NCBI GenBank assembly: GCA_031389825.1
Contig: JANMSW010000048.1
Location: forward strand, 49,197-113,196
Length of the DNA: 64,000 bases
DNA from: Spartobacteria bacterium
Lineage (GTDB): Bacteria > Verrucomicrobiota > Verrucomicrobiia > Chthoniobacterales > Chthoniobacteraceae
Reading direction: 5' to 3'
The position numbers were made by a program, and so were the translations under genes. How positions within the stretch are numbered: position 1 is the stretch's first letter; each line of letters starts with the position of its first letter. Below the pieces are notes generated by a model. It saw only the letters and a list, made by a program, of their open reading frames with translations, was not told the origin of the DNA and did not search any database. Of the stretch, positions 1-16,078 are shown piece by piece.

Positions 1-50
1 GGAGAGCATCTTAGGGGGGGGTATTGTGGAATAACCTTCTCCCTTCGACA

Positions 51-347
51 TCAAATTGAATTAGGGCGAGTGTGGCTACCGAGCGTCAACTCCTTGGATG
101 GTGTAAGTTTCACTGAGACCTTATGGGTGGAAGAGGTATTCCGCGACCCCGTTAATGTATTGTCAAGGACCCACAGGTTTACCGATGTTCCGCCTTCGAC
201 GGTGCACGAGAGGGTTACTTCCAAGTCGATCGTGACCTCGCCCAGAATGAACTCTGGATACGTGGGGTCACGTGAATCGGTAGCTTTCTTGATCTCTCTC
301 TTTATGGCTGAGATCGCATCAGCGAGTGAAGGTTGCGAGTTGTGCAT
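51..347 (-). CDS. trypco2-like (trypsin-co-occurring domain 2) small protein
   Basis: 98-aa ORF. N-terminal helix SLADAISAIKREIKKA is followed by a beta-rich segment EVTIDLEVTLS...STHKVSVKLTP, matching the remembered layout of trypco2 family proteins. Overlaps the upstream same-strand ORF by 29 nt. Confidence 0.55.
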   Translation of the reverse strand: MHNSQPSLADAISAIKREIKKATDSRDPTYPEFILGEVTIDLEVTLSCTVEGGTSVNLWVLDNTLTGSRNTSSTHKVSVKLTPSKELTLGSHTRPNSI

Positions 348-1305
348 TGTGCTGGATTATAAGTGCAAGATTTGCCACATTCGGGACGCCTATTAACAAA
401 GAGGTTTCTGTGGCCTGTACAATAGCGACGGGTGGCTTCTCCATCACGATCTTCTGGGCTTCTACTGCTTCAGTGTCGGTCGTTGCCGGGCTTTTCTCGG
501 AAAGGTTAGTTCCTGCTTGAAGGTCATGCAGAACGTCAAAGAAGGAAGATGGTCCTGAAGCGAAGCTTCCAATGATTTTCCCAAGCGCCCAGAATGCTTG
601 ATCGTACGTCAAGGCTGTCCCCGTGGCGAATCCGAAGTTATCAGGAGGATCCAACAAATCGAGCGTATTACATGCAAGCCACCAAATTCGAGGGCGATAC
701 TGACCGGCGATGGCGATAGTTGACCCGTCGCTAAAGTGCATGTCTCCCTTGCTGTCAACGTGCCCGACAACCACCGTGAGATCATGCTCAGACAGCATAT
801 TCAGCCGTAATTTCACTTCCAAGGCGATCGTAGGCTCCTTCTCTGCTCTGAGGGGAATCACCTGAGTCACGACACCGTTCGGCTCAGGGAAATTATACTT
901 GCAAAAGCGCTTGTAGCGCTCAGAAATGTCCGTGTAGTAGCTGGGTGGGATTTGTGAGATCGCTCTAATGCCGTGAATCTTAGATGCGTGAGCGGCACTT
1001 GAAGGAATGTCAGCCATTACCACTAGGGACTTTGGCCGCAGCAGTAGAGCTTCTAACCCCTTCATTGGGTGTGTGCTCTTCTGGAGCACAACCAGGGTTT
1101 GCGCTGCAACACTCTTGCGCAGCTGCGTCACCTCTTTTGGGTCCTTTGTAAGGACAACACCTCTTAGAGGTTGCACCAGCTGCCCCTCACAGAAGCTCCC
1201 GTGGACTAATTTCCCGTCCTGGAAATAGTAGGTTTCCGCCCCGAAAGTCGCAATATTGAGAAGGCCCAAAGCGAGCGTGAGCCTGACAATGTACCGGTTG
1301 ATCAT
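319..1305 (-). CDS. hypothetical protein, partner of the trypco2 gene; possible caspase/CHAT-fold peptidase
   Basis: 328-aa ORF with a hydrophobic N-terminus. Segment LTVVVGHVDSKGDMHFSDGS...RIWWLACNT places a His and a Cys each just after a hydrophobic strand, about 30 residues apart, as in caspase-fold His-Cys dyads. No other family motif recognised. Confidence 0.45.
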   Translation of the reverse strand: MINRYIVRLTLALGLLNIATFGAETYYFQDGKLVHGSFCEGQLVQPLRGVVLTKDPKEVTQLRKSVAAQTLVVLQKSTHPMKGLEALLLRPKSLVVMADIPSSAAHASKIHGIRAISQIPPSYYTDISERYKRFCKYNFPEPNGVVTQVIPLRAEKEPTIALEVKLRLNMLSEHDLTVVVGHVDSKGDMHFSDGSTIAIAGQYRPRIWWLACNTLDLLDPPDNFGFATGTALTYDQAFWALGKIIGSFASGPSSFFDVLHDLQAGTNLSEKSPATTDTEAVEAQKIVMEKPPVAIVQATETSLLIGVPNVANLALIIQHNAQLATFTR

Positions 1306-1528
1306 TTCCTCGAAGACTGAAGTGGTAGATTGGTAGGGGCAATCGGAATCAGCTTGCCGAGAAATTCTACGAACTTTGAGGATCCGGGTTTTTGCGAGTA
1401 AGAACCTAACTCTATGACTCTTCGGAACTCACTTTTGGAGACTTCGGTCTTTGCTCGCGGAAGAGTCTCCGTTGTGGATGAAGGGGTGGATTTGCTGGCA
1501 CGCGATAGAGCTTCCTTGAGACCGAGCG

Positions 1529-2854
1529 ATGCTGCAGGCCGACCTGCAACCCGGAGCTAGGATCCTCGTTTTGACTTATAATCGCCCTCTTAGTGGGGAG
1601 CTGCGAGATCGCTTTAGCCGTCTTTGCCCGCGAGCTGCGGTCGAGTGGTCGACCTTCTATCAGTGGTGTCGTGAATTCAGCGGCGCTCGCTGGGAGATTA
1701 TTAAGCCGTGGGAGCGTGAGACCCTGATCCGCGAGTTGATCAGCAAGGATGCTTCTCTTTCAAGGCTGCCAGAGGACTTCATTGCTGAAGAGGTAGATTG
1801 GATTCGAGATCAAGCGATCGTGACAAGGCAGGAGTACTTGGACGTGCCCCGGCTAGGACGTAAGCGTCCCTTGAACGATGATCAGCGGAATGCCGTTTTC
1901 ACTCTCCTGGTGGCGTACTGTCGCGAATTGAAGCGGCGTGGCCTTGATGATTGGACAGGCGCTGCTTCCTCTGTGTGGCGGCAGGTAGATCGTGGATTGC
2001 TGAGCACACCCCTCTACGACTCGATACTCGTGGATGAAGCTCAGTTCTTCGCGCCTACCTGGCTTCGACTCATTCGCAAGGCTGTTCGCCCTAGCTCTGG
2101 GCAATTGTTTCTAGCGGCAGATCCAACTCAAGGGTTCCTCAAACGCAGACAGTCTTGGCTCTCGAGTGGGCTCAACGTTCGGGGCAATTCTGCGCGCCTG
2201 CTTCGCTGCTACCGAAACACCAGTGCAATCCTTGAGTTTGCCGGTAACTTCTACCGGAACCGTATACCGGCTGAGGAGCAAGAAATCAATCTGCCTACAG
2301 CAGAAGAATTCAAATCGCTCGAGTCGGGTGAAGCTCCTCAGCTAATCCGAGTTGATAGTGCGCAAGGAGAATGTGCGCGAGTCGTGAACGAGATCGTAGC
2401 GGCCTTGGGCTTAGGAGCAAATCCAGAGCATTTCCTCGTGCTCCAGAGTGACTCCACGATGGTCGAGTCCTTCATCAAACTCATCAATCGATCCTTCAAA
2501 CAGCCTATCGCCCGTGACCTCAAAGACTATACGACTGCGTCATCTGGGATGGTAAAGGTGAGTTCACTGAATGCTGCGACGGGCTTGGAATGCCCGGTTG
2601 TATCCCTCTGCGGCCTAGACTCATTACTTGAGCGGGAAGAGGCCATAGGATTGGACGGAGACCAGAAACATGAGCTGATTCGAGACAACACACGCCGAAT
2701 CTACATGGGTATCACCAGAGCAAGTCAGAAGCTGGTCATTACTTGCCGTAGCCTGAGCACCCAAGCAGCGTTCAAATCTTCCCGAAATCACCAGCTGCCT
2801 CAAGTTACCCCCGGATCCTCAAACGTTGCTCCCAGCGATTTTGCGAGCCTTTGA
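1529..2854 (+). pseudogene. SF1 UvrD/Rep-like helicase lacking motif I (N-terminally truncated)
   Basis: The ORF starts at motif Ia (ILVLTYNRPL). Later motifs are present: II (ILVDEAQFF), III (LFLAADPTQGF), IV (CYRNTSAI), V (NAATGLECPVV) and VI (IYMGITRASQKL). No GxGKT is found anywhere. An in-frame TGA lies at 1517-1519, and the other upstream frames lack a Walker A. Confidence 0.6.
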
Positions 2855-3294
2855 ATCCAATCTCCATCGCGGGCTGGTGGGTGATGAGAACCTCCACTTC
2901 CACCATGAGAGCCCTTAACGTCACTGCTCCAGATCAAGCATAAACCAAATCCTGCAGAGCACGAGGAAATTATCGAAGCAGCCCGTCGTGGAGATAGGGT
3001 CCGTGCGATCAGCCTGTACATCACTGCCACAGGTGCGGGATTGGGCGAGGCTCAGAACTTCATCAGGGCTTTAGGTGTACAAACGGAAGAGGCGAGTGCG
3101 CCTGAGAACCGGCCTGGTGGTGGTGGGGAGCGGTAGCTCCGACGTGAGCTGGAGCTGCTGAGTGCTCAGGCAGTCGCAGCTTAGGTCTCAGGTTCGCCTG
3201 GTACTTCGCTCTCGACGGCATTCGCATCCGGTCTTGGGTTCCCCGCCGCTTGCGGCCGTCCCGGCGTTATCGAGCTGCGGATCCTCTGGTAGCT

Positions 3295-3327
3295 AAAAAA
3301 AAGCCCACCCGTACGGATGAGCTTTTT
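3295..3327. terminator. bidirectional Rho-independent terminator
   Basis: A8 run, then stem GCCCACCC, loop GTAC, stem GGATGAGC (two G-U pairs), then T5. On the minus strand this reads as hairpin plus T8, immediately downstream of the AAA+ gene stop at 3334. Confidence 0.6.
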
Positions 3328-3333
3328 GACTCC

Positions 3334-4830
3334 CTACGCCGCAATCTTCCGATGAGCTCGGGTAGATTGCAGTGTGGTAGCAGGTCTTGCTCTGCCGGTG
3401 GCCCAGGTCCGCAGCTCGCTCATTCGTTCCCCCATCAACTTCGAAAGGGGAACGAAGTCCACGAGCACCTCACCGATAGTGAGATCAGTTGGCTCCTGAT
3501 CTTGATCGAATCCGCGATACAGCGCCTCACTGAAAACCTGCTCGATCTCTGAGCCCGTGAAGGCTTCCGTGACCTTCGCCAGTTGCCGCAGATCGAAGTC
3601 GCAGGAATCACGATGGAACTTCTGGATCTGGATCGTCCAGATCGCTTCGCGCTCCTCCCGGGTGGGAAGATCCACGAAGAAGAGTTCATCCCAGCGTCCT
3701 TTGCGCAGCATCTCCGGTGGAAGCTGACTCACATCATTGGCGGTAGCCACGATGAAGACCGGAGCCTTCTTCTCCTGCATCCAGTAGATGAAGGAACCGA
3801 ATACCCGTGACGCAGTGCCACCATCAGTGGAGCCACTGCTCTTGCTTCCAGCAAACGCCTTCTCCAGCTCATCGAGCCAGAGCACGCAAGGTGCAATGGC
3901 TTCAGCAGTTTGGATCACCGAGCGCAGATTGGCTTCGGATTGACCCACGAGCCCGGCAAAGATGCGTCCAGCATCGAGCCTGAGTAGCGGGATCCCGAAC
4001 ACACTGGCTGTGGCTTTCGCTGCGAGGCTCTTCCCGCAACCAGGTACTCCAAGCATCAGGACTCCCTTGGGTGTGGGTAACCCGTACTCCACTGCGCGAG
4101 GGGTGAAAGCCTCCCTGCGCTTCAGGAGCCAGTCCTTGAGCTGATCCAATCCACCTATCGACGCCAGAGACTCGTTGCTTTCTACGAGTTCTAGGAGTCC
4201 ATTCTTTCGTACGGCCTGCGCCTTCTCTCTGGCGACCACCACTGGGCTGAGTTCCCCGGCTTCGATGACCGACAATGCAAAGGCATCTTCGGCTTCCCCA
4301 GTGGTCAATCCACGAGCTGCATCGATGAGTGCGGCGGTGAATACTTCATCCGGCTGTGGTTTGCCTGTGGATTCGACGATGCCCCTAAGGACCTGCTGCA
4401 GGGCGGAGGCGTCCGGCAGCGCGAAGTCGAGGACGGTGAACTCCCGTTCCAGCTCTGGAGGCAGCTTCAATCGACAGCCCAGCATGGCAATGGTCTTCCC
4501 ATGCAGCTTACCGGCCCGGAGTTGATCCCTCAAATTCCGGATGATGATCGGATTGGGATCATCAAGAAACGGCTGGAAGTCCCGCAGGAGAACCACCGTA
4601 TTCTCCGGTAGCTCCGCAATGATGCTCACCGCCTCCATCGGGTCCTGGCATCCTCTGGAAGCTCCGGTGCGGGTATCAATCAGACCTGCCGTCACGGACC
4701 AGGCAAAGAGCTGGTAGTTCAGGTGGTCGGCAATGGCTTTCAGTTCTGCTTCGACGCGTTGTTCCTCAGGCGAAACAAGGTAGAGTCCGGCGTACCCGGC
4801 TCTGATGTAGCGAGTGATCTTCTCTCTCAT
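3334..4830 (-). CDS. AAA+ ATPase, Ycf46-like architecture (N-terminal domain plus C-terminal AAA module)
   Basis: Walker A GVPGCGKS and Walker B VLWLDELEKAF. SRH-like region ATANDVSQLPPEMLRKGRWDE. Start taken at MREKITRY (ATG 4830), just after the stop of the upstream ORF (4845). Confidence 0.85.
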   Translation of the reverse strand: MREKITRYIRAGYAGLYLVSPEEQRVEAELKAIADHLNYQLFAWSVTAGLIDTRTGASRGCQDPMEAVSIIAELPENTVVLLRDFQPFLDDPNPIIIRNLRDQLRAGKLHGKTIAMLGCRLKLPPELEREFTVLDFALPDASALQQVLRGIVESTGKPQPDEVFTAALIDAARGLTTGEAEDAFALSVIEAGELSPVVVAREKAQAVRKNGLLELVESNESLASIGGLDQLKDWLLKRREAFTPRAVEYGLPTPKGVLMLGVPGCGKSLAAKATASVFGIPLLRLDAGRIFAGLVGQSEANLRSVIQTAEAIAPCVLWLDELEKAFAGSKSSGSTDGGTASRVFGSFIYWMQEKKAPVFIVATANDVSQLPPEMLRKGRWDELFFVDLPTREEREAIWTIQIQKFHRDSCDFDLRQLAKVTEAFTGSEIEQVFSEALYRGFDQDQEPTDLTIGEVLVDFVPLSKLMGERMSELRTWATGRARPATTLQSTRAHRKIAA

Positions 4831-4844
4831 GGTATGCAGTTGTC

Positions 4845-5069
4845 TTAGTGGTTGAAGTATTGATGTTCCCACGTGAGGCAGTTGGCGCGAGAGGCATCGG
4901 AGTAGAGGAGGTCGCCCTTTGCACCATGGACCTCCCATCGCTGGGTTTGCGGGTTGAACTCGATGGTGCCTGCCCGCTCCATCTCGAGTGGACCGATGGC
5001 CGTGAGATTAACGACTTCGGTGTAGAGCCCGTGCCCTGTGCCATCTGGCGTGAAGGTCAGGACGTTCAT
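4845..5069 (-). CDS. hypothetical 74-aa protein, translationally coupled in the AAA+ operon
   Basis: ORF overlaps the DUF2997 stop by 4 nt and ends 15 nt before the AAA+ start. No family recognised. Confidence 0.5.
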   Translation of the reverse strand: MNVLTFTPDGTGHGLYTEVVNLTAIGPLEMERAGTIEFNPQTQRWEVHGAKGDLLYSDASRANCLTWEHQYFNH

Positions 5070-5266
5070 GACCCAAGCTGCTGCTGCTGACTGGAAGTGC
5101 GGCGCTGGTGGTATTCGGGCTTCTTCTGCTTCTTTCCGACTACTCCCAATGCCTCCTCCAAGTACTCAGTAGCCTTCTCGCAATCGGCACCCTTGAAGCC
5201 AAGGGCATCAATCTGAATCTCACCCGTCGAGCGGATGGTGACTTCGATCGTGGGTTTACCGTTCAT
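5066..5266 (-). CDS. DUF2997-like small protein
   Basis: 66 aa. MNGKPTIEVTIRSTGEIQIDALGFKGADCEKATEYLEEALG matches the remembered DUF2997 pattern, and it sits in the usual position next to DUF1257. Confidence 0.55.
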   Translation of the reverse strand: MNGKPTIEVTIRSTGEIQIDALGFKGADCEKATEYLEEALGVVGKKQKKPEYHQRRTSSQQQQLGS

Positions 5267-5645
5267 GGTTACATGCCCCGATCACGAGTTTGATGGACCC
5301 ATCCTGCTGCGCTTTGCGCTGCACGAAGTGGCCGCGCTTCTTGGCTTCTCCGATGGTCTTGTAGACTCCGTAAAGCTGGAGCAAACGACCAAAGTTGGCT
5401 CCGACCTCTTTCTCGACATGCCCATCCCACCAGTCGGTAGTCAGGCCGTACGAGCCGTCGACGTTCTTCTGGAGGGCGACATCGTACGGGCCTTGAAGCC
5501 GTATGACGTAGTCTGCCTGGAGCTGGTTGTTGGCATATCCACGAGCAGTGGTGTTCTCCAGCAGCTCGAGTCCGAGTTCCTGGACTGCAGACTGCAGTGC
5601 CGTGGTGTCCCTGATTTGGGTGTGGATGGTGGTGAAATGACTCAT
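5256..5645 (-). CDS. DUF1257 (Ycf35-like) protein
   Basis: MSHFTTIHTQIRD...ALQSAVQELGLEL...YDVALQKN...YGLTTDWW is typical of DUF1257/Ycf35. Start taken at the internal ATG 5645. Overlaps DUF2997 by 11 nt. Confidence 0.6.
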   Translation of the reverse strand: MSHFTTIHTQIRDTTALQSAVQELGLELLENTTARGYANNQLQADYVIRLQGPYDVALQKNVDGSYGLTTDWWDGHVEKEVGANFGRLLQLYGVYKTIGEAKKRGHFVQRKAQQDGSIKLVIGACNHER

Positions 5646-5681
5646 GGGTTGGTTCCTTTCTGATTGTGGGTTGGAAATCAA

Positions 5682-5721
5682 AACGCCCGGCCCCCTTGAG
5701 TAGGGAAGGAGACCGGGCGTT
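5682..5721 (-). terminator. hairpin, possible terminator after the SWIM gene
   Basis: 9-bp stem AACGCCCGG/CCGGGCGTT with a 22-nt loop. The minus-strand reading is followed by TTTTGATTT. Confidence 0.35.
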
Positions 5722-5739
5722 CTTCTGGTGATGCGCTGG

Positions 5740-6048
5740 TTACAGCTGGAGCTTCCGTCGGCCTATCTCTCCGAAACGTTGCACCTGATGGGTTGAGGTA
5801 CCCGATCTGGCGACGGGTTGACTGGGGACAGCCTGCAGATCATGCATGCTGTGACAGTGGCGATTTGCAGTGCCGAGATGGACCGCTCGGGTGTGCTTGC
5901 AGCTGCGGGAGCCGTTTGCCGCCACGCGCAAGCGCCAGCCCGGACAATCACAGATTGTCCACCCGTCGGCGTAGAGGAGGGTCTGGTAGGGGCGGTTTCC
6001 CTTAGAGGACGCAAACGTCCAGCACTTGGATAACGCGGCAGCATTCAC
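5740..6048 (-). CDS. SWIM zinc-finger protein
   Basis: CDCPGW...(x14)...CKH fits the SWIM CxCxnCxH signature. Confidence 0.55.
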   Translation of the reverse strand: MNAAALSKCWTFASSKGNRPYQTLLYADGWTICDCPGWRLRVAANGSRSCKHTRAVHLGTANRHCHSMHDLQAVPSQPVARSGTSTHQVQRFGEIGRRKLQL

Positions 6049-6054
6049 GAGCTG

Positions 6055-7062
6055 CTACGCGGCGAGGTTGAACCTTCTGCGGCCAAGCTGACCGAAGTTC
6101 TGGACAAGGTCGGTGACATCCGCCTGGGACAGTTCTCGGGCTTTGTCGGCCAGCGCGGACAAACCCTGCTGAAGCTTCCGCTGTGCGCCACCGTTGTCTC
6201 GATACTCCGCGGCAGTGCGGGAGAGCAGTTCCTGACGCACGGCTTCGAGCTGATGCTCCATCGCCTGGTCGTTGGCGAAGTTCATCTGCTTGAACTGATC
6301 GATGAAGCGCACCAGGCGATTGAGAGTCTTCTGGTGCACGCCATCGGTTTTGCCGCTGTTGATGCTCTGGAGCATCTCCTCACAGAGAGTGGCAGTCTGC
6401 TCACGTAAGGATGCCACGCACTCCCCGACGAAGTTTTCCACATCACTGCGGATCTTTGTGCTGGCTTCTCGCACGGCATGTTGCCGGGCAGCGATCACCT
6501 CACGCTGTTCACTGAGGCTTACCAGATCAGTTGTCATCTCCTCTGGAAGAGCAATCTGGAAGAGGGTCATCTCGAAACCGAACTGCTTCTCCAGGGACAG
6601 CGGGAACGCGCCGGCAATGGCGGAGACGAGACGATCCGGATCGTTGACCAGCTTGTTGGCGACGGTGCGCCATTCCTCCATGGCTCTGGAGCGGTGCCTT
6701 GCGTAATGGGCTACGAATTCATCCTTCGCGTTCCAGAACTCGGATTCTAAGGCGCGGAGCTTGTCCGTGACCTCTCCCAGCTTTGAGTTTGGCAGGAAAT
6801 GGCCAAGGCCGTTAACGAAGGGGAAGGTGTTGGCGACGACGATGGCATGTGCCCGGCTCTCGATGAGTGCCAGGTCAGCAGTGGCATCTTTGGGAAGCAG
6901 GCGTTTGTGGCCGAGGCTGATCAGACGATCGGAAACGTCATCAGCATCGAGTCCCAGATCCTCAGCTTTGAGTTTCTTGCAGCCGCGCCAGAAGCGGACG
7001 CTGACGCTGATGAGCACGCCTTCGCGGCTGAGTACATCGAGTAGTGTGGAGTTGGAGTTCAT
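6055..7062 (-). CDS. DUF3150-like protein
   Basis: VLISVSVRFWRGCKKLKAEDLGL...LISLGHKRLLP...ESEFWNAKDEFVAHY matches the remembered DUF3150 N-terminal pattern. Start at MNSNSTLL (ATG 7062). Confidence 0.55.
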   Translation of the reverse strand: MNSNSTLLDVLSREGVLISVSVRFWRGCKKLKAEDLGLDADDVSDRLISLGHKRLLPKDATADLALIESRAHAIVVANTFPFVNGLGHFLPNSKLGEVTDKLRALESEFWNAKDEFVAHYARHRSRAMEEWRTVANKLVNDPDRLVSAIAGAFPLSLEKQFGFEMTLFQIALPEEMTTDLVSLSEQREVIAARQHAVREASTKIRSDVENFVGECVASLREQTATLCEEMLQSINSGKTDGVHQKTLNRLVRFIDQFKQMNFANDQAMEHQLEAVRQELLSRTAAEYRDNGGAQRKLQQGLSALADKARELSQADVTDLVQNFGQLGRRRFNLAA

Positions 7063-7086
7063 AGCTTGGTTTGGTTTGGGTGTAGG

Positions 7087-7121
7087 AAAAAAAAGCCCGC
7101 ACGCCGGTGAGGCGTGCGGGC
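7087..7121 (-). terminator. strong Rho-independent terminator
   Basis: Perfect 11-bp stem GCCCGCACGCC/GGCGTGCGGGC with loop GGTGA. Followed by T8 on the minus strand. Confidence 0.7.
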
Positions 7122-7365
7122 GTCGTGTTCTGCAGGGAAGCGTAACGCGGTCGCGCAACACCCTGTGTTGGTGGAGAAGCGATTGCTTTACGGTTTGAAC
7201 CGACGCTTACCGGACGGATGCAGGTGGCATCCTTTCTGCGAGGAATGAATACTACACTGCTTGGACGTCCGTCCTCCGCCCACTGTCATTCTTGAGCACC
7301 GAATAGAAATGGTCCGGAAAAAATTCGGGGAGCGAACACAGCACGCCGCTCAAGTTGACCGAGCT

Positions 7366-8730
7366 TCAGAACGCTTCTCCTTTGCCACCAAACATCAGGA
7401 TTAGATGAGCAAAAGCTTTTGCGAGTCTTTGTGCGTCCATTGACGACAGTGTGCCAGTAATGCTCAGCACGCATTGACTGCGTGGGGTTGCTTGGGTCGA
7501 GAACACACCATCCGGAGTGCTCCTGACCTCGTAAGCAGTGAGCAGTGGCTGTCCATTGAAAGCCTCCAGTAAGATGCGGCCTCTTTCCACGACCTCGTAA
7601 TTAAACTGGCGGCTTTCGGTCTCGTAGCGAACCTTCGCGTTTAGGTCGGCAGGGTTGAAGAGAATCGTTTCCCCCTCGCCGTCGCCTTCCGCTTGGAGCG
7701 AGCGTACGATCATCTTCCGAGATTTTTCACCGTAGCCCAATTCCTTGTAGGGGGCGAGCTTCGCATTGATGAACGCCAACGTCTCTTGATAGGAGGGGCC
7801 TACAAGTGGGTTGGGAGGAACCACTTCAATGAAACGGTCAGTGTTGCATTGCAATTCCCCCCACCGTTTGCCGCTGGCAATCTCCATTGCCTCGGATGCC
7901 GCCGCTTCGTGGGCCCGTTGTACAACCATTTGCTCCTGCTCCTTTTTGGTTAGCTCTCTTCCAGGAACAGGTGCAATGCGAGGACCGGGCGCTGCGGTGG
8001 GCGCGGGACCAGGAGCAACGAGGGACGTAGCCGCGGCATTGTCGATGGCGGCAAGCAGCGAGCGATGTTGCTGCTCACTTGTTGATACCGCCTCCCTGGC
8101 CGCCGAATCCATCTGGTCTGCCTCTTTCCGCATCTGTGCGGCACGAACTTGGTTGGAAGTGTCATTCGGGCTTAGCGGATTAGGGCGATCAACGTTGGCC
8201 GCGTTCTTCCGTAGCCGGTCTGCAGCGGCTGTGACTTGTGCGAGCGCCGCCTTTGAGGCGGTCATTCGCTGCTTCGCAACCATGAGGTCGGTGACGGCTT
8301 TCTGCAGCGCCACTATCTGTGGCCTCGCACGGTCGGCGCGAGGTGCCCGCGCCAGGATGGCGCTCGCCTGATCCAGATTCCCTGCCCGCACGGCAGCAAT
8401 GGCGTCCTTTTGGAGCTTCTGAATGTCCCCGAGAACGAGGGCAATCGAGTCTTCCGGAACCCAAATAGCGATGGATTTGCCATCCTTGGATTTTTCCATC
8501 AGGAACACTCTTTTGTCCCGGTGAGCCAGCACCCGGAAGACTTCGCCTTGCTTAGCAGTGCGTAGCGGCTCTTCCCGGAAGTGGAGGGGGACGGACCTGG
8601 TCACGGTGACGCTATCTCCTTCTTCAAACGATGCTTCTGTGGTGATGGGGCTCAAGGCCACCGCTAAAGTGGCCGCGATGATGCTCGGCCAACCAACTCC
8701 CGGCGAGCGGGAGAATTCTGTACAGTTCAT
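7366..8730 (-). CDS. secreted or membrane-anchored coiled-coil protein, unknown function
   Basis: Start at MNCTEF. Hydrophobic signal-like segment WPSIIAATLAVALSPITTEA, a helical Ala/Gln-rich middle and a Pro/Ala linker. Confidence 0.5.
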   Translation of the reverse strand: MNCTEFSRSPGVGWPSIIAATLAVALSPITTEASFEEGDSVTVTRSVPLHFREEPLRTAKQGEVFRVLAHRDKRVFLMEKSKDGKSIAIWVPEDSIALVLGDIQKLQKDAIAAVRAGNLDQASAILARAPRADRARPQIVALQKAVTDLMVAKQRMTASKAALAQVTAAADRLRKNAANVDRPNPLSPNDTSNQVRAAQMRKEADQMDSAAREAVSTSEQQHRSLLAAIDNAAATSLVAPGPAPTAAPGPRIAPVPGRELTKKEQEQMVVQRAHEAAASEAMEIASGKRWGELQCNTDRFIEVVPPNPLVGPSYQETLAFINAKLAPYKELGYGEKSRKMIVRSLQAEGDGEGETILFNPADLNAKVRYETESRQFNYEVVERGRILLEAFNGQPLLTAYEVRSTPDGVFSTQATPRSQCVLSITGTLSSMDAQRLAKAFAHLILMFGGKGEAF

Positions 8731-8862
8731 GATTAATTTTCGTTGGTTTGTTTCTGAGGATGAGAGCCCTGGCCGCTGGAATCTCCCGGAGCACAACTGT
8801 TCCCGAACGGGAACACATAGAGTGCGCCTGCGGCGGTAACGTCAAGTTCCCAACCCGGAACA

Positions 8863-9135
8863 ATGAAGAACGTGCGCAACCTAGTCGGCCCGCAGATCCG
8901 GCGGGTGCGCACGTTGCAGGCGCTCACTCAAGACGATCTTGCGGCAAAGCTTCAGCGTTGTGGCTGGGACGTGAGCCGAGTCTCGGTGGCCAAGATCGAG
9001 GCTCAGCTCCGCTGGGTTGCTGACTGCGAGCTTTATCTGCTCGCCCACGTCCTTGGTGTTTCGATCCAGGAGCTCTTTCCGCCCCTCAAGGAGGTGCGGA
9101 GCTTCCTGGGCTCGCCCGGGTCGAAGCGCAACTGA
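8863..9135 (+). CDS. XRE-family helix-turn-helix transcriptional regulator
   Basis: IRRVRTLQALTQDDLAAKL...VSVAKIE is a classic Cro/C1-type HTH. It is the only plus-strand gene inside the island. Confidence 0.75.
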   Translation: MKNVRNLVGPQIRRVRTLQALTQDDLAAKLQRCGWDVSRVSVAKIEAQLRWVADCELYLLAHVLGVSIQELFPPLKEVRSFLGSPGSKRN

Positions 9136-9195
9136 GTTGCGCCTCGACGATAAGGCACGGGTGAATCCGTGCATCCTGCAAGGTGGGCCAGATGC

Positions 9196-9642
9196 TCAGA
9201 TCAATCCCGCTTCCCGGAAAGAGAAGTGAGATTCGCCCACGATCACATGGTCAAGCATCTGGATCTGCAGGAGCTTGGCCCCTTCGTTGATCTTTGAGGT
9301 CAATCGCCTGTCGCACTCACTGGGAGCCGTGTCACCCGAGGGATGATTGTGGACCAGAATGAAGGCGTAGGCGGCGAGCGCGATTAACGGCCGGAAGATC
9401 TCCCGGGGATGCGCAATGGATTCGTTGAGGGATCCGATGCTCACCAAGTTGACGCCTTTGATGTGGTACTTGGTGTTAAGCCCGAAGACATGAAGGTGCT
9501 CCTTCTCCTGATCGTACTGAGGGCTGTTGCTGATATGCTGCCGGTAGTAGGTGGCGACAAGCTCGGGTGTATCCAGCCGCACTCGTGGGAGCGGTTCTCC
9601 GACGCGCACCACCTGAATGTAGGAGGAGTAGTTTCCTCGCAT
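9196..9642 (-). CDS. RadC-like JAB metalloprotease domain protein
   Basis: HPREIF...ILVHNHPSGDTAPSECD...LDHVIV is the RadC/JAB signature. Start at MRGNYSS (ATG 9642). Confidence 0.85.
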   Translation of the reverse strand: MRGNYSSYIQVVRVGEPLPRVRLDTPELVATYYRQHISNSPQYDQEKEHLHVFGLNTKYHIKGVNLVSIGSLNESIAHPREIFRPLIALAAYAFILVHNHPSGDTAPSECDRRLTSKINEGAKLLQIQMLDHVIVGESHFSFREAGLI

Positions 9643-9897
9643 GAGCTGCTCCTTTCTGGGGTTTTGCTCCTCCACGCTGAGGAGCGCTGTTCGATGGAGG
9701 CAAAGGAATGAGCCGGATACATCCAATGAGTAAGGTGTATCCGGCTCGGTGTTTCCGTCGCAAAAATGGAAGGCTAGGGGCTGCGGTGGTCCGAATCCGG
9801 AGCGCACCTGATTCCCTTACCCTTGTTCGGGTCCACCCGAAGAAGTTGGGCACCCGGACGAGAAATCGCTGTCCGGGCTGCCGCCTGACCAATCTGC

Positions 9898-11412
9898 CTA
9901 GAGCTTCACGTTCTGCAGGCTGCGCAACGTGGTGCGCACCGACTGGAACTCGCGTTCCGTGGTCCGCTGCTCCCGCTGGAGGAGCTTGAGTTTGCTGCCA
10001 AGATCCTTCAGTCCGGTGAGCCCGTCCTGAAGGAAGTCTTTCAGCGAGTCGATGAGTTCGAGTGCTTCATCGAGCTTCGCTCCTTTCTGCGATGGGGGAG
10101 TCGTACTGTGGTCGGTTGACCCAGTAGCTGCTGGTTCGTCCTTCATTGATGAGTCTAGGATGTGTGTTGCGTCCGCCGTGTGGGCGGTCGCAATGGGTTG
10201 TTGGTTTTCCTGAGCGGGGCCGTGCTCATCGGAGCTCGGCTCGGTGGGTTCTGAGCCTGCGGTGCTGGGGGCTGACGGTGGGGGCACCTCGGCCCGGACC
10301 GGCATGACGATCATCCGCCTGCCTCCGCTGCTGAAGACGAGTGGTGACATGGCATCGATGAGATCCACGGCAGCGAGACCGAACTTCAGGGCTTTGGTCA
10401 GGATCTCGCGGTTCAGGAACGTGATTAATGGGCCGCCGATTACGTCGATCGCGGGCACCTCCACTTTGGTCCAGTACTCGGCAGTTTGAGATTTGCCGAG
10501 CAGCCGTACCTTCCCGCCCTCTACTTCGATGCCAATCGAGGCATTCACCGAATCATGACTGGGCATGCGCTGGATGGTCTGCAGGACCTGTTCGATGGCT
10601 TCCGCCTGGAGGTCGAAATGGATCTTCATTTCATCGCCGCGTGGGATCACTTGCCGCCAGTTGGGATAATTCCCGTCAATCTCCCGAGTGATAAACCGCC
10701 AGCGGCGCGTGCTGATCTGGATGTCCGCAGCCTGGGCGTAGTTTAGTCTCGCGGTCTTTAGCTGCCATTCACCGTCCTGGTTGAACTCCTTCCACTTCAG
10801 AAAGCGGTGGCTTCGCAGGATTAGCGATTTTTGGAGCGCAACCGAGAACGAGTTGCTGCTATAGAGGTGGCGACCGTCAGTGCCGACGACGTGGTGATAT
10901 TTCTCGTCACTGACGTCGAGGTATGCGCCGTTGAGCACGTAGCGGGTTTCATCGGTGCTTGAACAGTCGATTGCCTGGTGAAGTGACAGCCTGAGGGCTT
11001 CCGGTAGTGGGATGGCCTCCCCTTTGATCCGGGGGATGAGAGGGAACTCCTCGGGCTTCCCGGTTTCGATCTTCTGCTCGGCGAACTGATGACCGATGGC
11101 ATGCCGGATCGAGACGGTCGTGTCGTCGAGGCGTTCGACGAGGATCTGCTCATCTTTTCCACACGACTTCACGGTCTTCGCCAATGCATCGTACGGGACC
11201 AGCAGAACTTCGGGTGTCCCGTTGGTCGGTTGCTCCAGTCGCACCGTAGCGAAGGTATCGAGATCCGTGACGGTGAGGGTGATCCAACCATCGGTAGTAC
11301 GCTCGACCTTGATGGTACTGAGCACGGGGAGGCTGGATTGTTTGTTGAGGACTTTTCCGAGTCCAACGAGTGCGGGTTTTAGTTCCGCGACGGGTAGAGC
11401 GATAGAGTTCAT
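9898..11412 (-). CDS. DNA polymerase III beta sliding-clamp homolog with ~130-aa C-terminal extension
   Basis: N-terminus LKPALVGLGKVLNKQSSLPVLSTIKVE...LTVTDLDTF resembles DnaN. A clamp-length body is followed by a low-complexity Pro/Ser/Thr segment and a helical tail. Confidence 0.7.
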   Translation of the reverse strand: MNSIALPVAELKPALVGLGKVLNKQSSLPVLSTIKVERTTDGWITLTVTDLDTFATVRLEQPTNGTPEVLLVPYDALAKTVKSCGKDEQILVERLDDTTVSIRHAIGHQFAEQKIETGKPEEFPLIPRIKGEAIPLPEALRLSLHQAIDCSSTDETRYVLNGAYLDVSDEKYHHVVGTDGRHLYSSNSFSVALQKSLILRSHRFLKWKEFNQDGEWQLKTARLNYAQAADIQISTRRWRFITREIDGNYPNWRQVIPRGDEMKIHFDLQAEAIEQVLQTIQRMPSHDSVNASIGIEVEGGKVRLLGKSQTAEYWTKVEVPAIDVIGGPLITFLNREILTKALKFGLAAVDLIDAMSPLVFSSGGRRMIVMPVRAEVPPPSAPSTAGSEPTEPSSDEHGPAQENQQPIATAHTADATHILDSSMKDEPAATGSTDHSTTPPSQKGAKLDEALELIDSLKDFLQDGLTGLKDLGSKLKLLQREQRTTEREFQSVRTTLRSLQNVKL

Positions 11413-11451
11413 GGTTGTTTCTCCTTTTCTTGGGTTGGGTGAAGAAACGAG

Positions 11452-11487
11452 ACAGCCCGCAGATCCAATGAAGGACGTGCGGGCTGT
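11452..11487 (-). terminator. hairpin, possible terminator upstream of the clamp gene
   Basis: 10-bp stem ACAGCCCGCA/TGCGGGCTGT with a 16-nt loop. The minus-strand reading is followed by a T-rich tract. Confidence 0.35.
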
Positions 11488-11526
11488 TCGTCTCGAGGTT
11501 TGACTGCGGGGAGGGTGTTTCCCCAG

Positions 11527-11769
11527 CTATTCTGTGGTGGCGTAACTGCGTCCGAGGTGGTCGAAGTAGCGACCTGTGTCGCAAAGGGTACAGGGTTCTT
11601 TTGGGAAACGGGCTTTCACCTGTTTCTGGTACTCCAATGCCTTCTGCTTGTTGCCGAAGCTGCGGTCGAAGAGCCCTGCTTCCGCGGCGGTCTCGGGAGG
11701 CATGACGCACCACCTGAACTCATTGCGGTAGCGCCGCGGTGGTTCCGGCGCGGGTCCAATCGCTGTCAT
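11527..11769 (-). CDS. hypothetical 80-aa protein coupled to the ligase gene
   Basis: ATG at 11769 overlaps the ligase stop as ATGA. No family recognised. Confidence 0.4.
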   Translation of the reverse strand: MTAIGPAPEPPRRYRNEFRWCVMPPETAAEAGLFDRSFGNKQKALEYQKQVKARFPKEPCTLCDTGRYFDHLGRSYATTE

Positions 11770-12821
11770 GCTGCCTTGTACTTGAGCTGCCCCGTGGTGC
11801 ATTCCTCGGCGGCAATGTCATCTCGCACGCCCAGGTAGACCGGCTGGTAGATGGAGCCGCTCTCCGGAAACGCGTAGAGGAAGCGGACCTCCACAACTTG
11901 CCCCGCTTGGGGGAGCTCATGGTTCGGAGGAATGGTGACGTTTCCGGCGTTCACCGCCTTGTCACCCGTGAAGAGAGCCAGTGAGACGCTGCGCTTGGCA
12001 TTTACTTTGGTCACGATGAACGAGGCAGTCTCGCAGAACTTGTACTTAAGCTGCGAACCACCGGTATTGGGTCTGCCTGCGGTGTACAGAGCCTTGGCCC
12101 CCTTGAGCACCACTCCTTCAGCGCTCCGAGCTTTCAGCTGGTCGAAGATCTCCCGCTTTTCCTCTGGTGTGCAGGCGGTGAGTACGCGCCTGATCGATGG
12201 ATGCTCGAAGTCTGAGAGCAGCTTGTACAAACGCCCGGAGCGTCGGTGAAACCATTCTCCCCGCAGATCCTTTCCATTAACGGCCAACAGATCGAAAGCG
12301 TGGAAGATCTCTCCAATGACCTCGCCGTCCATCAGGAAGTCTTCAGCGCAACGTAGCGCGTCATCCACCAATGGCTGTGGAAGCGCAACGGTGAGGCCGA
12401 GCCGGTTAATCCCGGTGATCACTGGACCTTCCTTGCGGATGAGCAGTCGTTTGCCGTCGAACTTCTCCTGCATCCAAAAATCTGGATCGTTGATGAGCTG
12501 TTCGACTTGAGCTTCCTCCACAGGATTAAGCAGCTGACAGTGAATGCCGGCGTTTTGGCTCTCCTTGTCTGTGTGCTGGTAGGGAGTGCCATCCTCGCCT
12601 GGCGTGTAACCTTTGGCCTGCTTCTCCTGGATAAGCTTATCGAAAATCGCCTTCGCTTTCTCCAGATCTACTGGTGTCTGGGTCTTGCTGCCGGTGGACA
12701 GGGTGCTGCCTCTGCGGCCATACGCATAAACGACGACGTAGCCGTTCCCTTGTGGCTCGATGCGGGCTTGGTAAACTTTGTCTGAGGCTCCCTGCCGGTA
12801 GTAGAGGGTCGTGTTGTTCAT
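11766..12821 (-). CDS. WGR domain fused to ATP-dependent DNA ligase
   Basis: N-terminal WGR-like LYYRQGASDKVYQARIEPQGNGYVVVYAYGRRGS. Ligase motif I EKFDGKR, then FLMDGEVIG, FHAFDLL and EGVVLKG. Confidence 0.85.
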   Translation of the reverse strand: MNNTTLYYRQGASDKVYQARIEPQGNGYVVVYAYGRRGSTLSTGSKTQTPVDLEKAKAIFDKLIQEKQAKGYTPGEDGTPYQHTDKESQNAGIHCQLLNPVEEAQVEQLINDPDFWMQEKFDGKRLLIRKEGPVITGINRLGLTVALPQPLVDDALRCAEDFLMDGEVIGEIFHAFDLLAVNGKDLRGEWFHRRSGRLYKLLSDFEHPSIRRVLTACTPEEKREIFDQLKARSAEGVVLKGAKALYTAGRPNTGGSQLKYKFCETASFIVTKVNAKRSVSLALFTGDKAVNAGNVTIPPNHELPQAGQVVEVRFLYAFPESGSIYQPVYLGVRDDIAAEECTTGQLKYKAA

Positions 12822-12869
12822 GTGAGTTCCTTTTGGGTTGAGATTGAAGGCTCGTGTTGAGCTGGTGGG

Positions 12870-13283
12870 TTATCGGCGGAATCTGCCGCGGAAGTGAGCC
12901 ACCACGATGGTGATCACGTAGAACGCCACGAGCGCGGCGATCGTGAAGACGATGAGTCGCCCGGCGATGGTGACCAGGAAGGCCAGCCAGGTTGCAATCT
13001 GCCAAAGCAGCACGGTCACGAGCGGCACCACAAGCACGCTGGGAATGAGCAGAACCGACCAGATTTTGCCGTTCAACTTGCACCATTCCCGCAGTGTCCC
13101 ATTGGGCGAAAGCCACCACTCCAGTGACAGCAGGGTGTAGCGAAACACCTCCGCCGCTCTCTGAAGCCCGCTGAGTTGTGCCAGGTCCGGGTCCACGGTC
13201 GGTGACGTAAGAGGCTTTCGTTTCCAGTGCCGCTGCCACAGCTGCCTGTGCCATCCGCAAGTGTCCCTCTGCGGATCATTCAT
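12870..13283 (-). CDS. membrane protein (three predicted TM helices at the C-terminus)
   Basis: Hydrophobic runs SVLLIPSVLVVPLVTVLLW, IATWLAFLVTIAG and IVFTIAALVAFYVITIVVA. Start uncertain (13283 or 13313 or 13349). Confidence 0.45.
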   Translation of the reverse strand: MNDPQRDTCGWHRQLWQRHWKRKPLTSPTVDPDLAQLSGLQRAAEVFRYTLLSLEWWLSPNGTLREWCKLNGKIWSVLLIPSVLVVPLVTVLLWQIATWLAFLVTIAGRLIVFTIAALVAFYVITIVVAHFRGRFRR

Positions 13284-13557
13284 GGGGCGAGGAGGCTTGG
13301 GTGCGCCGTGCATGAGCTCGGCGGGTGTGTGAGCCAAGGATGGTCCCAACGATCAGCAGGCTGACGCAGCCAATGGCGAGCGCACTGGCTCTGAGCTGCC
13401 AGATCTCGGCGTTTTGCCGCTCCTTTTCGAGCTGCTCTTTGGCTTCGATAAGCAGCTTCTCCTCTTTGTTGTCGAACCAGCCGGCATTCACCGGCCCTGC
13501 GGTAAGGAGAAAGAGGAGAATGAGCAGGAGGATTCTTCTTTGATGTTCTTTGTTCAT
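13276..13557 (-). CDS. small signal-peptide / TM protein
   Basis: N-terminal ILLLILLFLLTAGPVNA, a coiled segment, and a second TM ALAIGCVSLLIVGTILG. Confidence 0.5.
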   Translation of the reverse strand: MNKEHQRRILLLILLFLLTAGPVNAGWFDNKEEKLLIEAKEQLEKERQNAEIWQLRASALAIGCVSLLIVGTILGSHTRRAHARRTQASSPHE

Positions 13558-13586
13558 GGTATGGGTCAGGGGTTGAGATGAAGAAA

Positions 13587-13622
13587 GGGCCGGACTCCAT
13601 CCTGCGGGATGAAGACCGGCCC
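13587..13622 (-). terminator. hairpin, possible terminator after the nuclease gene
   Basis: GGGCCGG...CATCC TGCG GGATG...CCGGCCC forms a nested stem. The minus-strand reading is followed by TTTCTTCATC. Confidence 0.4.
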
Positions 13623-13685
13623 TACTTTTGCATTTGGTTCGCCCACCGGGGGCGGGAATCCCCGGTCAATCCGGGGACCTATGGG

Positions 13686-14522
13686 TCACGGCCAGCGGCG
13701 GCACTCGTTGAAGTACTCGCAGCTTGAGCACTGCATTCCTGGACTGGGAATCCAGTCGCGTTGCTCCAGTCCATGGAGGTAGCTCTCCATGGAGCGGAAG
13801 AGCCGGGTCTGCTGCTGCTCGCTCATCGGCTCCAGTGCCGTGATGATTAATCTCGGGTTCTTGGTCTTCACCAGGTGATGCAGCTCGATGCCTAGCTCCC
13901 GGGTGCCAGTGGCGGCGCGGTACAGCACTGCGTAGCTACTGGTCTGGACCTCGGTCGTGTGAGCGACCTTCTCCGGATTGGGCGTCTGGGAACTACTCTT
14001 GAAGTCAATGATCCGGCCCTGCTGGACCAGATCAATGACTCCAACCAGTGTCGGCAGCCCGTGTTCCGACAAGTCAGCCTCCACAGGGACTTCCACCGCG
14101 TCGGGCTTTACCTCCGCCGGAATGTTGGATTCACGGAAGTAGGTCTCCAGCAGCCGCCAGCCGACCGCTTTCTGCTGTGCTTCGTCTCCGGGCTCCCAGT
14201 CGATTGGCTCCTTGCCGTCTGCGTCCCAGACAAGCCCGTACACGGTATGGAGCTGTTTTAGACTGAGGAGCTGATCCTTCCAACGCGACTTGTTCCAGAG
14301 CTTGAGCACCTCATGGAGGCAGCTCCCGACGTGGAGGGCTGGCGTGCGGGGTTTCTCCACTTCGCAAACGTACCGGAAGTAGAACTTCAACCGGCATCTC
14401 AGGAATGTGCTCAGCCGTGAGGCGGAGACTATTTGCTGAAGGCCATGGATCAGCTCCGGCTCGGTGCGCTGTCTGGTTGCGAGTTCGCGGGGTGGGGAAG
14501 CAGCTTCGGAGAGCGCGATCAT
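13686..14522 (-). CDS. PD-(D/E)XK nuclease, Cas4/AddB-like with Fe-S cysteines
   Basis: N-terminal Cys in FLRCRLKFYF plus C-terminal CSSCEYFNEC (Cx2Cx5C). Nuclease core VGVIDLV...GRIIDFKSS. Confidence 0.75.
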   Translation of the reverse strand: MIALSEAASPPRELATRQRTEPELIHGLQQIVSASRLSTFLRCRLKFYFRYVCEVEKPRTPALHVGSCLHEVLKLWNKSRWKDQLLSLKQLHTVYGLVWDADGKEPIDWEPGDEAQQKAVGWRLLETYFRESNIPAEVKPDAVEVPVEADLSEHGLPTLVGVIDLVQQGRIIDFKSSSQTPNPEKVAHTTEVQTSSYAVLYRAATGTRELGIELHHLVKTKNPRLIITALEPMSEQQQTRLFRSMESYLHGLEQRDWIPSPGMQCSSCEYFNECRRWP

Positions 14523-15076
14523 GACCGTGCGGGTGGATTGCGCCAGCGACTCCCTCTGCTGTTGCTCTGCTTTCCCACTTTCTCCAGCAACTCTTCAATT
14601 AGCTGTGAGGCCTGCATTTTGTTGCATTCCTTCACGCCGACGCGAAAGAGCTGCTGCGCCATCGCCTCAATCTCGGCTTTATCGAGCTGGTGCTCGTTGA
14701 CCACGCGGAGGATTAGACCGCGTTGGCCGTCGGTGCAGTTCCACTGGCCGTCCAGCCGCTGAGTGCGATGGCCGTTCGTGCCGTTAGTACCATGAGTGCC
14801 GTTCGCTCGCGTGCTGGTACCATTGTTGACGTGGGCACCGTTCCTGGGCGCGAGGCCATTACTGTCGCCGATCCCATAGGTGGTGTCGGGCATGAATCCC
14901 ACCTTCTGGATCTCGGCATCAACTGAGGTTTGCAACAGAGTGTAGAGCCTGCTCGATTCCGCTGCGACCTGACTCAGGTCGCTGACTTCGACTTGAACGG
15001 AGACGGAGCAGCAGTGGGAAGAGAACTGGGGAAGACCCAGCTTTTTGGTGTAATTGATGGATAAGGTGACTGCCAT
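14519..15076 (-). CDS. hypothetical protein with Asn/Gly/Thr-rich linker
   Basis: Start at MAVTLSINY (ATG 15076). Its stop overlaps the nuclease start by 4 nt. Central NGTSTRANGTHGTNGTNG low-complexity tract. Confidence 0.5.
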   Translation of the reverse strand: MAVTLSINYTKKLGLPQFSSHCCSVSVQVEVSDLSQVAAESSRLYTLLQTSVDAEIQKVGFMPDTTYGIGDSNGLAPRNGAHVNNGTSTRANGTHGTNGTNGHRTQRLDGQWNCTDGQRGLILRVVNEHQLDKAEIEAMAQQLFRVGVKECNKMQASQLIEELLEKVGKQSNSRGSRWRNPPARS

Positions 15077-15840: not shown

Positions 15841-15917
15841 TGGCGGAGCCTACGGGACTCGAACCCGCAACCTCTGCCGTGACAGGGCAGCGCTCTGACC
15901 AATTGAGCTAAGGCTCC
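15841..15917 (-). tRNA. tRNA-Asp (anticodon GTC)
   Basis: The reverse complement folds as a cloverleaf: acceptor GGAGCCT/AGGCTCC, D arm GCTC..GAGC, anticodon stem CTGCC/GGCAG with loop CTGTCAC, T arm GCGGG TTCGAGT CCCGT. Discriminator G and encoded CCA. Confidence 0.95.
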
Positions 15918-16078
15918 TTTTCAGGAGGCGCGAACCATAGGCCCCGTGATTCCGCCTCGCAATAAATTTCTCCCGTAAAAGTGAACGCGTTTCGCGGTTC
16001 GATTCTCACCTGCTCGAAGCTGCATCGTAGACTCTTTGGCGCTCGTATTGCAGACCGTATGTACGTGCACTAGAGCTA

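Follow-up and report, generated by a model that had tools for sequence, protein, structure and literature searches.

The genes ycf35 and ycf46 are conserved in cyanobacteria and algal plastids where, to our knowledge, they are orphans with no known mechanism. Here we describe an operon that combines relatives of both: it occupies positions 3334-5645, on the minus strand, of a 64,000-nucleotide window (the whole stretch of DNA analyzed) from contig JANMSW010000048.1 of a Spartobacteria bacterium of the phylum Verrucomicrobiota. Its four genes code, in succession, for a Ycf35-type DUF1257 protein, a DUF2997 protein, the 74-residue product of an open reading frame (ORF) that we call ORF74, and a Ycf46-like AAA+ ATPase. 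The ycf35 and ycf46 families, DUF2997 and an undescribed 74-residue family are thereby brought together in a compact and widely spread module. A first-pass annotation, made from the letters of the window, had held that no mechanism is established for the triad of DUF1257, DUF2997 and the ATPase; our literature search on the triad, on DUF1257, DUF2997 and DUF3150 (the family of a neighboring protein) and on the PF accessions likewise found no functional study. We regard as new the ORF74 family and a tail motif common to the ATPase, the DUF3150 protein and a SWIM-like zinc-finger protein encoded next to the operon.

The closest described counterpart is the cyanobacterial and plastid set of Ycf46, Ycf35 and DUF2997, which belong to the same protein families and show the same adjacency of DUF2997 and ycf35, there in a conserved cluster with the ferredoxin gene fed7 (PMC4284462). 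Two Nostoc loci (L078 and L080) have the DUF1257, DUF2997 and ATPase genes adjacent, and the 90% cluster of the L078 ATPase has a member that is annotated in Anabaena as carried on a plasmid. However, the cyanobacterial loci examined are without ORF74, DUF3150, the SWIM-like protein and RadC, whereas here one operon is found in a non-photosynthetic, Verrucomicrobiota-type island. Canonical Ycf46 also lacks the basic-hydrophobic C-terminal tail of the ATPase from the window, which falls in a separate clade. A more distant likeness is to the PAN, Mpa, p97 and Rpn11 unfoldase systems: the module shares with them a classical-clade AAA domain (nearest to p97 D2), a tandem of inactive and active halves, small partners, a recurrently linked JAB-domain (RadC) gene and a conserved extreme C-terminal tail, which is reminiscent of the HbYX tails by which proteasomal ATPases dock. 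Unlike these systems, the module is accompanied by no peptidase chamber, ubiquitin-like, Pup or E1/E2 genes, its tail is basic-hydrophobic and not of the Hb-Y-X type, and the folds of its partners have no match in the PDB. The IetAS system is similar in the AAA core only (PADLOC IetA, E 5.8e-25): the module has no subtilisin-like IetS partner, and both the N-terminal half of its ATPase and its partners are different.

The MoxR-DUF3150-VWA cluster of IncC/SXT elements offers a further parallel, in that DUF3150 again has an AAA+ ATPase for a neighbor, within the DNA-processing region (ssb-recT-exo) of a mobile element. That cluster has an ATPase of the MoxR type with a VWA partner, contains no DUF1257, DUF2997 or ORF74, and its DUF3150 protein is without the C-terminal tail; conversely, no MoxR or VWA domain was detected in the block around the operon in the window. 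For instance, on the Citrobacter plasmid pCAV1857-208 (IncC/SXT-type, MOBH; locus L097, 3448-12292) DUF3150 sits between the MoxR ATPase and the VWA gene, right after ssb-recT-exo. Since DUF3150 is found both in the MoxR cluster and in the Ycf46-like module, its AAA+ partners in mobile elements come from two families that are unrelated to each other.

The first gene of the operon codes for the 129-residue DUF1257 protein (5256..5645, on the minus strand like the other three) and is followed by those for the 66-residue DUF2997 protein (5066..5266), ORF74 (74 residues, 4845..5069) and the 498-residue ATPase (3334..4830). Read directly from the sequence, the DUF2997 gene, whose ATG begins at 5266, overlaps the DUF1257 gene, whose stop codon is at 5258-5256, by 11 nucleotides, and ORF74 is coupled to DUF2997 by a four-nucleotide overlap with a shared ATGA (5069-5066). 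Both overlaps had been given correctly in the first-pass annotation; its 15-nucleotide gap before the ATPase is to be corrected to 14, with the ORF74 stop ending at 4845 and the ATPase ATG at 4830. A mechanical ORF list has the ATPase in a longer form (534 residues from 4938), and we prefer the 498-residue start because it matches the gene calls in relatives (498-499 residues).

Hairpins delimit this unit on either side. Between the SWIM-like gene and DUF1257 lies a strong one with a U-run (5672..5722, minus strand; dG -30.6 kcal/mol, z -6.1, then UUUUGAUUU), a terminator or attenuator that sets off the four genes. The other, at 3288..3333 (dG -18.2 kcal/mol, z -3.7), is an intrinsic terminator common to the operon and a convergent UvrD-like gene; its stem-loop is flanked by A5 and U8 and can therefore act in both directions. 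A simple terminator consensus scan left both unflagged and flagged a third hairpin at 7121-7095. In four related loci (L082, L093, L083 and L087) hairpins of differing sequence stand at the same two positions, and an analogous succession of A-run, hairpin and U-run follows the ATPase in the related loci. These equivalents support a self-contained transcription unit, as do the folding energies and z-scores, in agreement with the hairpin in front and the strong bidirectional terminator behind that had been proposed from the letters alone. The four genes are thus confirmed as one compact operon bracketed by terminators.

The C-terminal half of the ATPase matches PF00004 (92.9 bits, E 2.9e-26), with an AAA lid domain, and its best relatives in the PDB are the D2 domains of p97/Cdc48, which are unfoldases of the classical AAA clade. 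The motifs GvpGcGKS, VLWlDElE, vATAN and lPpEmlRkGRwDE, corresponding to the Walker A and B, sensor-1 and arginine-finger regions, are kept in at least 80% of about 100 homologs. The N-terminal half has no meaningful relative among PDB sequences; when compared by hhalign with the AAA half of the same protein, it aligns with a probability of 89% (E 2e-6), from which we take it to be a degenerate AAA domain. Judged by these comparisons, the ATPase is a tandem protein in which a degenerate N-terminal AAA half precedes a predicted active classical-clade AAA domain. Over its full length it matches phrog_8638 (E 5e-132) and is 33-42% identical to cyanobacterial proteins named ycf46: it shares 41% identity over residues 1-485 with a Lyngbya protein (L025) carrying the UniRef name 'Uncharacterized AAA domain-containing protein ycf46', and 33% with the Nostoc protein of L078 that carries the same ycf46 name. 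The closest relatives of all the proteins are nonetheless from Verrucomicrobiota, and in a rough neighbor-joining tree the ATPases linked to ORF74 form a mobile-element clade apart from the canonical cyanobacterial sequences. For both these reasons we label the protein Ycf46-like and do not call it an orthologue; nor is it a core gene of a cyanobacterial or plastid genome.

The two small DUF proteins were assigned with equal clarity. The DUF1257 protein covers the whole of PF06868 (model positions 1-103 of 103) with 53.9 bits against a cut-off of 22.2 (E 2.3e-14) and also matches phrog_20456 (E 3.4e-12). Its N-terminal MSH[FW][TS] is kept across phyla, and the protein is 67-83% identical to the 119 closest homologs listed. 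An AlphaFold2 (AF2) model of it (predicted local distance difference test score, pLDDT, of 87) found no match among PDB folds at E<=0.001. The DUF2997 protein likewise spans all of PF11211 (positions 1-47 of 47; 61.9 bits against a cut-off of 24.1, E 5.3e-17), matches phrog_23133, and carries a single invariant cysteine in a G..G..C motif, together with an LG motif. The family memberships first proposed from the letters are thus borne out, with both DUF proteins above the Pfam cut-offs and the ATPase ycf46-like over its full length.

ORF74, in which no recognizable family had been seen at first reading, has indeed no match in Pfam, NCBIfam or PADLOC. At E<=1e-3 an exhaustive profile search retrieved 598 representative clusters, of which 223 pass E<=1e-10; the proteins are mostly 75-100 residues long. 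The family has four invariant residues (R32, W45, R61 and E68) and eight near-invariant ones (G10, L22, G26, Q43, V47, S60, C64 and W67). A Pfam scan of 73 members gave no consistent match, one of the longer members detected no domain fusions, and the family profile found nothing meaningful among PDB sequences. The AF2 model (pLDDT 91.7) presents a beta-meander with a C-terminal helix; it has no match among PDB folds at E<=0.001, and in BFVD it matches uncharacterized phage proteins only. The phage homologs are seen only with the family hidden Markov model (HMM), a tblastn search of phages with ORF74 alone having returned no match. On these profiles ORF74 is the founding member of a real, large and previously undescribed small-protein family.

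We found the triad in 29 loci of the fetched set, part of which was anchored on ORF74 and is hence partly biased. Their hosts comprise Verrucomicrobiota, Planctomycetota, Myxococcota, Omnitrophota, Nostoc, plasmids of Paenibacillus and Nitrospirota, phages of Pseudomonas and Rhizobium, and IMG/VR contigs. In all 29, DUF1257 and DUF2997 are adjacent and in the same order, with the position of the ATPase moving around them; ORF74 is present in 16, DUF3150 in nine (all with ORF74), RadC in seven and the SWIM-like protein in three. When the survey was anchored on the ATPase, DUF1257 and DUF2997 were adjacent to it in 16 of 80 genome loci, in two gene orders: DUF1257-DUF2997-[ORF74]-AAA and AAA-DUF1257-DUF2997. 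When it was anchored on ORF74, each context examined had an ATPase of about 498 residues within about 5 kb, and most had DUF1257-DUF2997 immediately upstream. The large tailed phages have the layout ATPase-X-DUF1257-DUF2997-ORF74-...-DnaB-PolA; with the family HMM, an ORF74 homolog is seen directly after DUF2997 both in PA_L9 of Pseudomonas (E 2e-13) and in RHph_I4 of Rhizobium (E 4e-11). The homologs of the four genes are PAL9_71 and 74-76 in the Pseudomonas phage and EVC24_084 and 086-088 in the Rhizobium phage. On a plasmid of Candidatus Manganitrophus (Nitrospirota), the genes run JAB-hyp-AAA-DUF1257-DUF2997-DUF3150-ORF74 between toprim/helicase and ParB genes, and two IMG/VR contigs show (DUF3150-like)-ORF74-DUF1257-DUF2997-AAA. 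A full-length homolog of the ATPase is carried by about 90 plasmids.

The co-occurrence of the same genes in 29 loci from several phyla, phages and plasmids is far beyond chance, and a linkage that persists through permutation of gene order, in different phyla and kinds of replicon, argues strongly for functional coupling. The module is thus really and widely conserved in phages, plasmids and genomic islands. This bears out the mobile context noted at first reading, for which phages, plasmids and a multi-copy island now stand; the four genes recur together well beyond this genome and are not confined to photosynthetic chromosomes. Two further observations may be added. In Mycobacteriophage Corndog-type phages the ATPase is present and DUF1257, DUF2997 and ORF74 were not detected, which is uninformative on the module. 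A Nitrosomonadales metagenome-assembled genome (L028, 3-7554) has three paralogous Ycf46-like ATPase genes around one DUF1257-DUF2997 pair.

The ATPase, the DUF3150 protein and the SWIM-like protein end in a common G-R-(R/K)-Φ-x-Φ tail, where Φ is hydrophobic (...HRKIAA, ...FGQLGRRRFNLAA and ...FGEIGRRKLQL, respectively). Within their last nine residues, 21 of the 30 ATPases with an adjacent DUF1257 gene have the shorter motif [RK][RK][ILMFV], versus five of the 64 without one (Fisher p 1e-9, on counts that ignore kinship), and two of those five are linked to ORF74. A strict pattern, G.?[RK][RK]Φ.Φ.{0,2}$, was matched by 16 of 373 genes of the module neighborhoods, against a background of three in 3057 ORFs, kinship again being ignored. 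Each of the 16 codes for an AAA, DUF3150 or SWIM-like protein, and a DUF3150-like protein from a viral contig is among them. Versions of the tail are found in separate clades of the ATPase: GRKLEI in Myxococcota, RRKLEM in Planctomycetota, RKIAA in Verrucomicrobiota and KRKINA in viral contigs. Since the tail of the ATPase tracks linkage to DUF1257 and DUF2997, even where DUF3150, ORF74 and the clamp gene are absent, that pair is the most economical candidate for its receptor. A DnaN-like clamp encoded upstream was also considered in this role and rejected: ATPases in loci without a clamp gene bear the tail as well. The tail is moreover unlike what we take to be the clamp-binding consensus. 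Separately, C-terminal '-AA' residues were considered as ssrA-like degrons; they end three of 11 island ORFs versus one of 29 elsewhere, a marginal difference, and are not kept in homologs of the ligase and DnaN, and the idea was dropped, the basic-hydrophobic tail being better supported.

We tentatively favor the explanation, which we put at somewhat less than an even chance, that the operon encodes a multi-subunit AAA+ protein-remodeling machine and is part of the backbone by which mobile replicons, be they phages, plasmids or integrative islands, are replicated and maintained. The ATPase is presumably hexameric, a ring by which protein complexes would be unfolded or taken apart. DUF1257 and DUF2997, always adjacent in the same order and often translationally coupled, would be obligate small partners of the ATPase, probably joined in a heteromer, and ORF74 would add a third small subunit, peculiar to the mobile-element clade. 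The C-terminal tail may serve for docking to a single shared receptor, for which DUF1257 together with DUF2997 is the simplest choice; through it the ATPase would be united with the DUF3150 and SWIM-like proteins, be these co-factors or clients. The target would probably be a protein-DNA or a replisome or recombination assembly during establishment or replication of the element. Support for a role in replication or maintenance comes from the sites of the module: beside DnaB and PolA in phages, between primase/helicase and ParB genes on a plasmid, and beside the PDDEXK-ligase-DnaN-RadC genes in islands. Gene content and coupling, conservation, co-occurrence and the motifs of the ATPase and of the tails are observed; the assembly of such a complex, the docking of tails and the role in replication or establishment are what we infer from them.

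A more specific version seems to us doubtful, if worth stating: DUF1257/DUF2997, joined by ORF74 in mobile elements, might be a docking hub that binds the G-R-(R/K)-hydrophobic-x-hydrophobic tails of the Ycf46-like unfoldase and of its DUF3150 and SWIM-like clients or co-factors, an adaptor-based remodeler that would be common to phages, plasmids and integrative islands and reduced in cyanobacteria and red-lineage plastids. If true, it would be the first mechanistic handle on ycf35 and ycf46, which have been orphan genes for decades. The culturable Pseudomonas and Rhizobium phages that carry the module, such as Pseudomonas phages PA_L9, SM1 and PaMx31, offer tractable genetic systems, with a defined list of subunits and a testable hypothesis about a short motif.

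Several observations weigh against the proposed remodeling machine. As many as 64 of 94 scored Ycf46-like ATPases have no DUF1257/DUF2997 nearby, and the ATPase can therefore work without linked partners. The tail motif is absent from several phage and Nostoc ATPases, and its counts, as said, take no account of kinship. The fold searches with DUF1257 and ORF74 were uninformative, so that the roles of these partners are read from genomic context alone, and adjacency to replication genes is no proof of a replication function. As to the island, a tRNA-Asp gene upstream (15841..15917, minus strand) has its 3' end facing the block of PDDEXK nuclease, ligase and clamp genes, as expected of an integration site, and was the only match in an Rfam scan of positions 1-16000; however, neither an att-type repeat of this 3' end nor an integrase was found in about 22 kb, including 6.7 kb beyond the left end. 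The mobility of the island itself is hence presumed.

Among the other explanations, the module might serve counter-defense or host takeover, its AAA+ complex unfolding or stripping a host factor (an immune protein, or a nucleoid or replication inhibitor) and so helping an incoming element to become established. That three kinds of mobile replicon carry the module would suit such a role, as would the association with RadC/JAB and DUF3150 proteins, the latter also found in the conjugative DNA-processing region of IncC/SXT-type elements, and the separation of the ORF74-containing ATPases, as a clade of their own, from canonical cyanobacterial Ycf46. Yet the DUF1257/DUF2997/ATPase core is kept from cyanobacteria to phages, with the high identity to the closest DUF1257 homologs listed that was given above, whereas counter-defense genes are usually narrow in distribution and fast-evolving; no known anti-defense family was detected either, and we consider this role plausible, if unlikely.

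It is similarly plausible but improbable, in our estimate, that the module is a stress-, redox- or Fe-S-linked chaperone, functionally like the cyanobacterial and plastid Ycf46 and Ycf35-DUF2997-ferredoxin set and borne on mobile elements for auxiliary housekeeping. The neighborhood of fed7 in the cyanobacterial cluster points in this direction, and so do the reported induction of the ycf46 operon by stress and (p)ppGpp (bioRxiv preprint 10.1101/2025.07.21.665879), the one invariant cysteine of DUF2997, and a NrdG-like 4Fe-4S radical-SAM-type protein that is encoded after DUF2997 on Paenibacillus plasmid pPPM1a and before the ATPase on Treponema plasmid pTRESU01. However, neither the window nor the Verrucomicrobiota, phage and Nitrospirota modules contain a ferredoxin or radical-SAM gene, the present host is non-photosynthetic, and the partners ORF74, DUF3150 and RadC would be left unexplained. 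The two NrdG-like proteins, of the '4Fe-4S single cluster' type (L095, 9287-9868, on pPPM1a; L094, 6333-6941, on pTRESU01), are 36% identical and carry a CxxxCxxC-type motif; on pTRESU01 the ATPase is set among contractile-injection-system and baseplate genes.

Least supported, and in our view very unlikely, is anti-phage defense or abortive infection, the 'conflict' reading of the first-pass annotation, in which the ATPase and small sensor proteins would detect infection and trigger arrest. The likeness to IetA (NCBIfam IteA, E 5.9e-23) and the defense-type genes nearby in the island and its relatives speak for it, but that match is limited to the generic AAA domain (residues 248-447) with no IetS protease among the neighbors, and PADLOC gives no match to DUF1257, DUF2997 or ORF74, nor to the SWIM-like or DUF3150 protein. 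The module lies moreover in phage replication regions by DnaB and PolA, near plasmid ParB and, in the island, within what is constant, where defense genes make up the variable part, and core homologs reside on cyanobacterial chromosomes. No complete catalogued defense system was recognized in the module with PADLOC-DB v2, and scans with PADLOC, NCBIfam and PHROGs returned generic AAA matches and PHROGs of unknown function only. The case serves as a caution that an operon of an ATPase and small proteins in an island need not be for defense: here it belongs to the backbone, and the defense-type genes are the neighboring variable cargo.

Returning to the remodeling machine that we favor, its functional unit is probably larger than four genes, as it is repeatedly accompanied by DUF3150, the SWIM-like protein and RadC. 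Immediately upstream of the operon, on the minus strand like the genes that follow here, is the gene for the SWIM-like zinc-finger protein (5740..6048, 102 residues, with a CxC...CxH arrangement), a probable accessory component. It has no significant Pfam match; its CDCPGW...CKH signature is kept in two homologs, namely an ORF that lies in L002 between ORF74 and the ATPase gene (41% identity, E 4e-23) and the gene just 3' of ORF74 in L084 (E 2e-10). Next is the DUF3150 gene (6055..7062, 335 residues; PF11348, E 1.3e-21, 77.6 bits), a family that adjoins the module in nine loci, among them a viral contig and the Nitrospirota plasmid. The strong terminator-like hairpin flagged by the consensus scan (7095..7121; 11 bp, of which 10 GC, then T8) lies between DUF3150 and a 476-residue ORF, and falls inside the DUF3150 ORF as mechanically called from a GTG start; translation must therefore begin at the ATG at 7062, which gives 335 residues as in L092. 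The 476-residue ORF is followed upstream by the RadC-like JAB-domain gene (9196..9807; PF04002, E 2.5e-35). RadC is within or beside the module in the seven triad loci already counted: it stands, for example, between ORF74 and the ATPase in L087 and L088 and adjoins the ATPase in L096.

Further upstream, still on the minus strand, are the genes for the DnaN-like clamp (9898..11412), a WGR-domain ATP-dependent ligase (11766..12821) and a PD-(D/E)XK nuclease (13686..14522), so that the nuclease, ligase and clamp surroundings reported at first reading are now identified. The clamp is 504 residues long against about 367 for a normal one; it has a long low-complexity and coiled-coil-like C-terminal extension and weak Pfam and TIGR scores (74.6 bits for TIGR00663, where the cut-off is 137.65), and is a divergent, element-encoded form that is kept in related islands. 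Seven Verrucomicrobiota loci have a PDDEXK-ligase-DnaN-(RadC)-DUF3150-module block in common, and comparison of the same seven found nothing in common downstream of the ATPase. The variable region carries GmrSD, SNIPE/T5orf172 and Cap17-like genes in the relatives and UvrD/NERD-like and Trypco2 genes in this window. As nothing downstream is shared and the defense-type domains vary, the terminator of the ATPase marks the junction of a conserved backbone with a cargo hotspot. An AAA_15/21 ATPase lies on the other side, upstream of the conserved block, in L082. Two of the seven loci, L082 and L093, belong to one genome: Verrucomicrobiota bacterium sgz303538 (CM136900.1, 7.8 Mb) has at least these two full copies of ligase-DnaN-RadC-DUF3150-module and three DUF1257 proteins, and in it an IS66-family transposase splits one copy of the block between DnaN and RadC.

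In the cargo of the window, the UvrD-like helicase gene (1529..2854, plus strand) converges on the bidirectional terminator; it matches the PADLOC candidate C3a187 'NERD+UvrD' (E 1.6e-26) over model positions 238-545 only, and the NERD part is apparently missing. Beyond it, a Trypco2-domain gene (51..347, minus strand; PF19631, E 4.6e-17) overlaps the end of a gene for a 328-residue protein of no family (319-1305, minus strand), and the pair has the look of a conflict-type cassette of its own, within the variable part next to the module. This cassette continues beyond the left end of the window (L092, 14780-16240), and in the longer contig an NHL-repeat protein follows.

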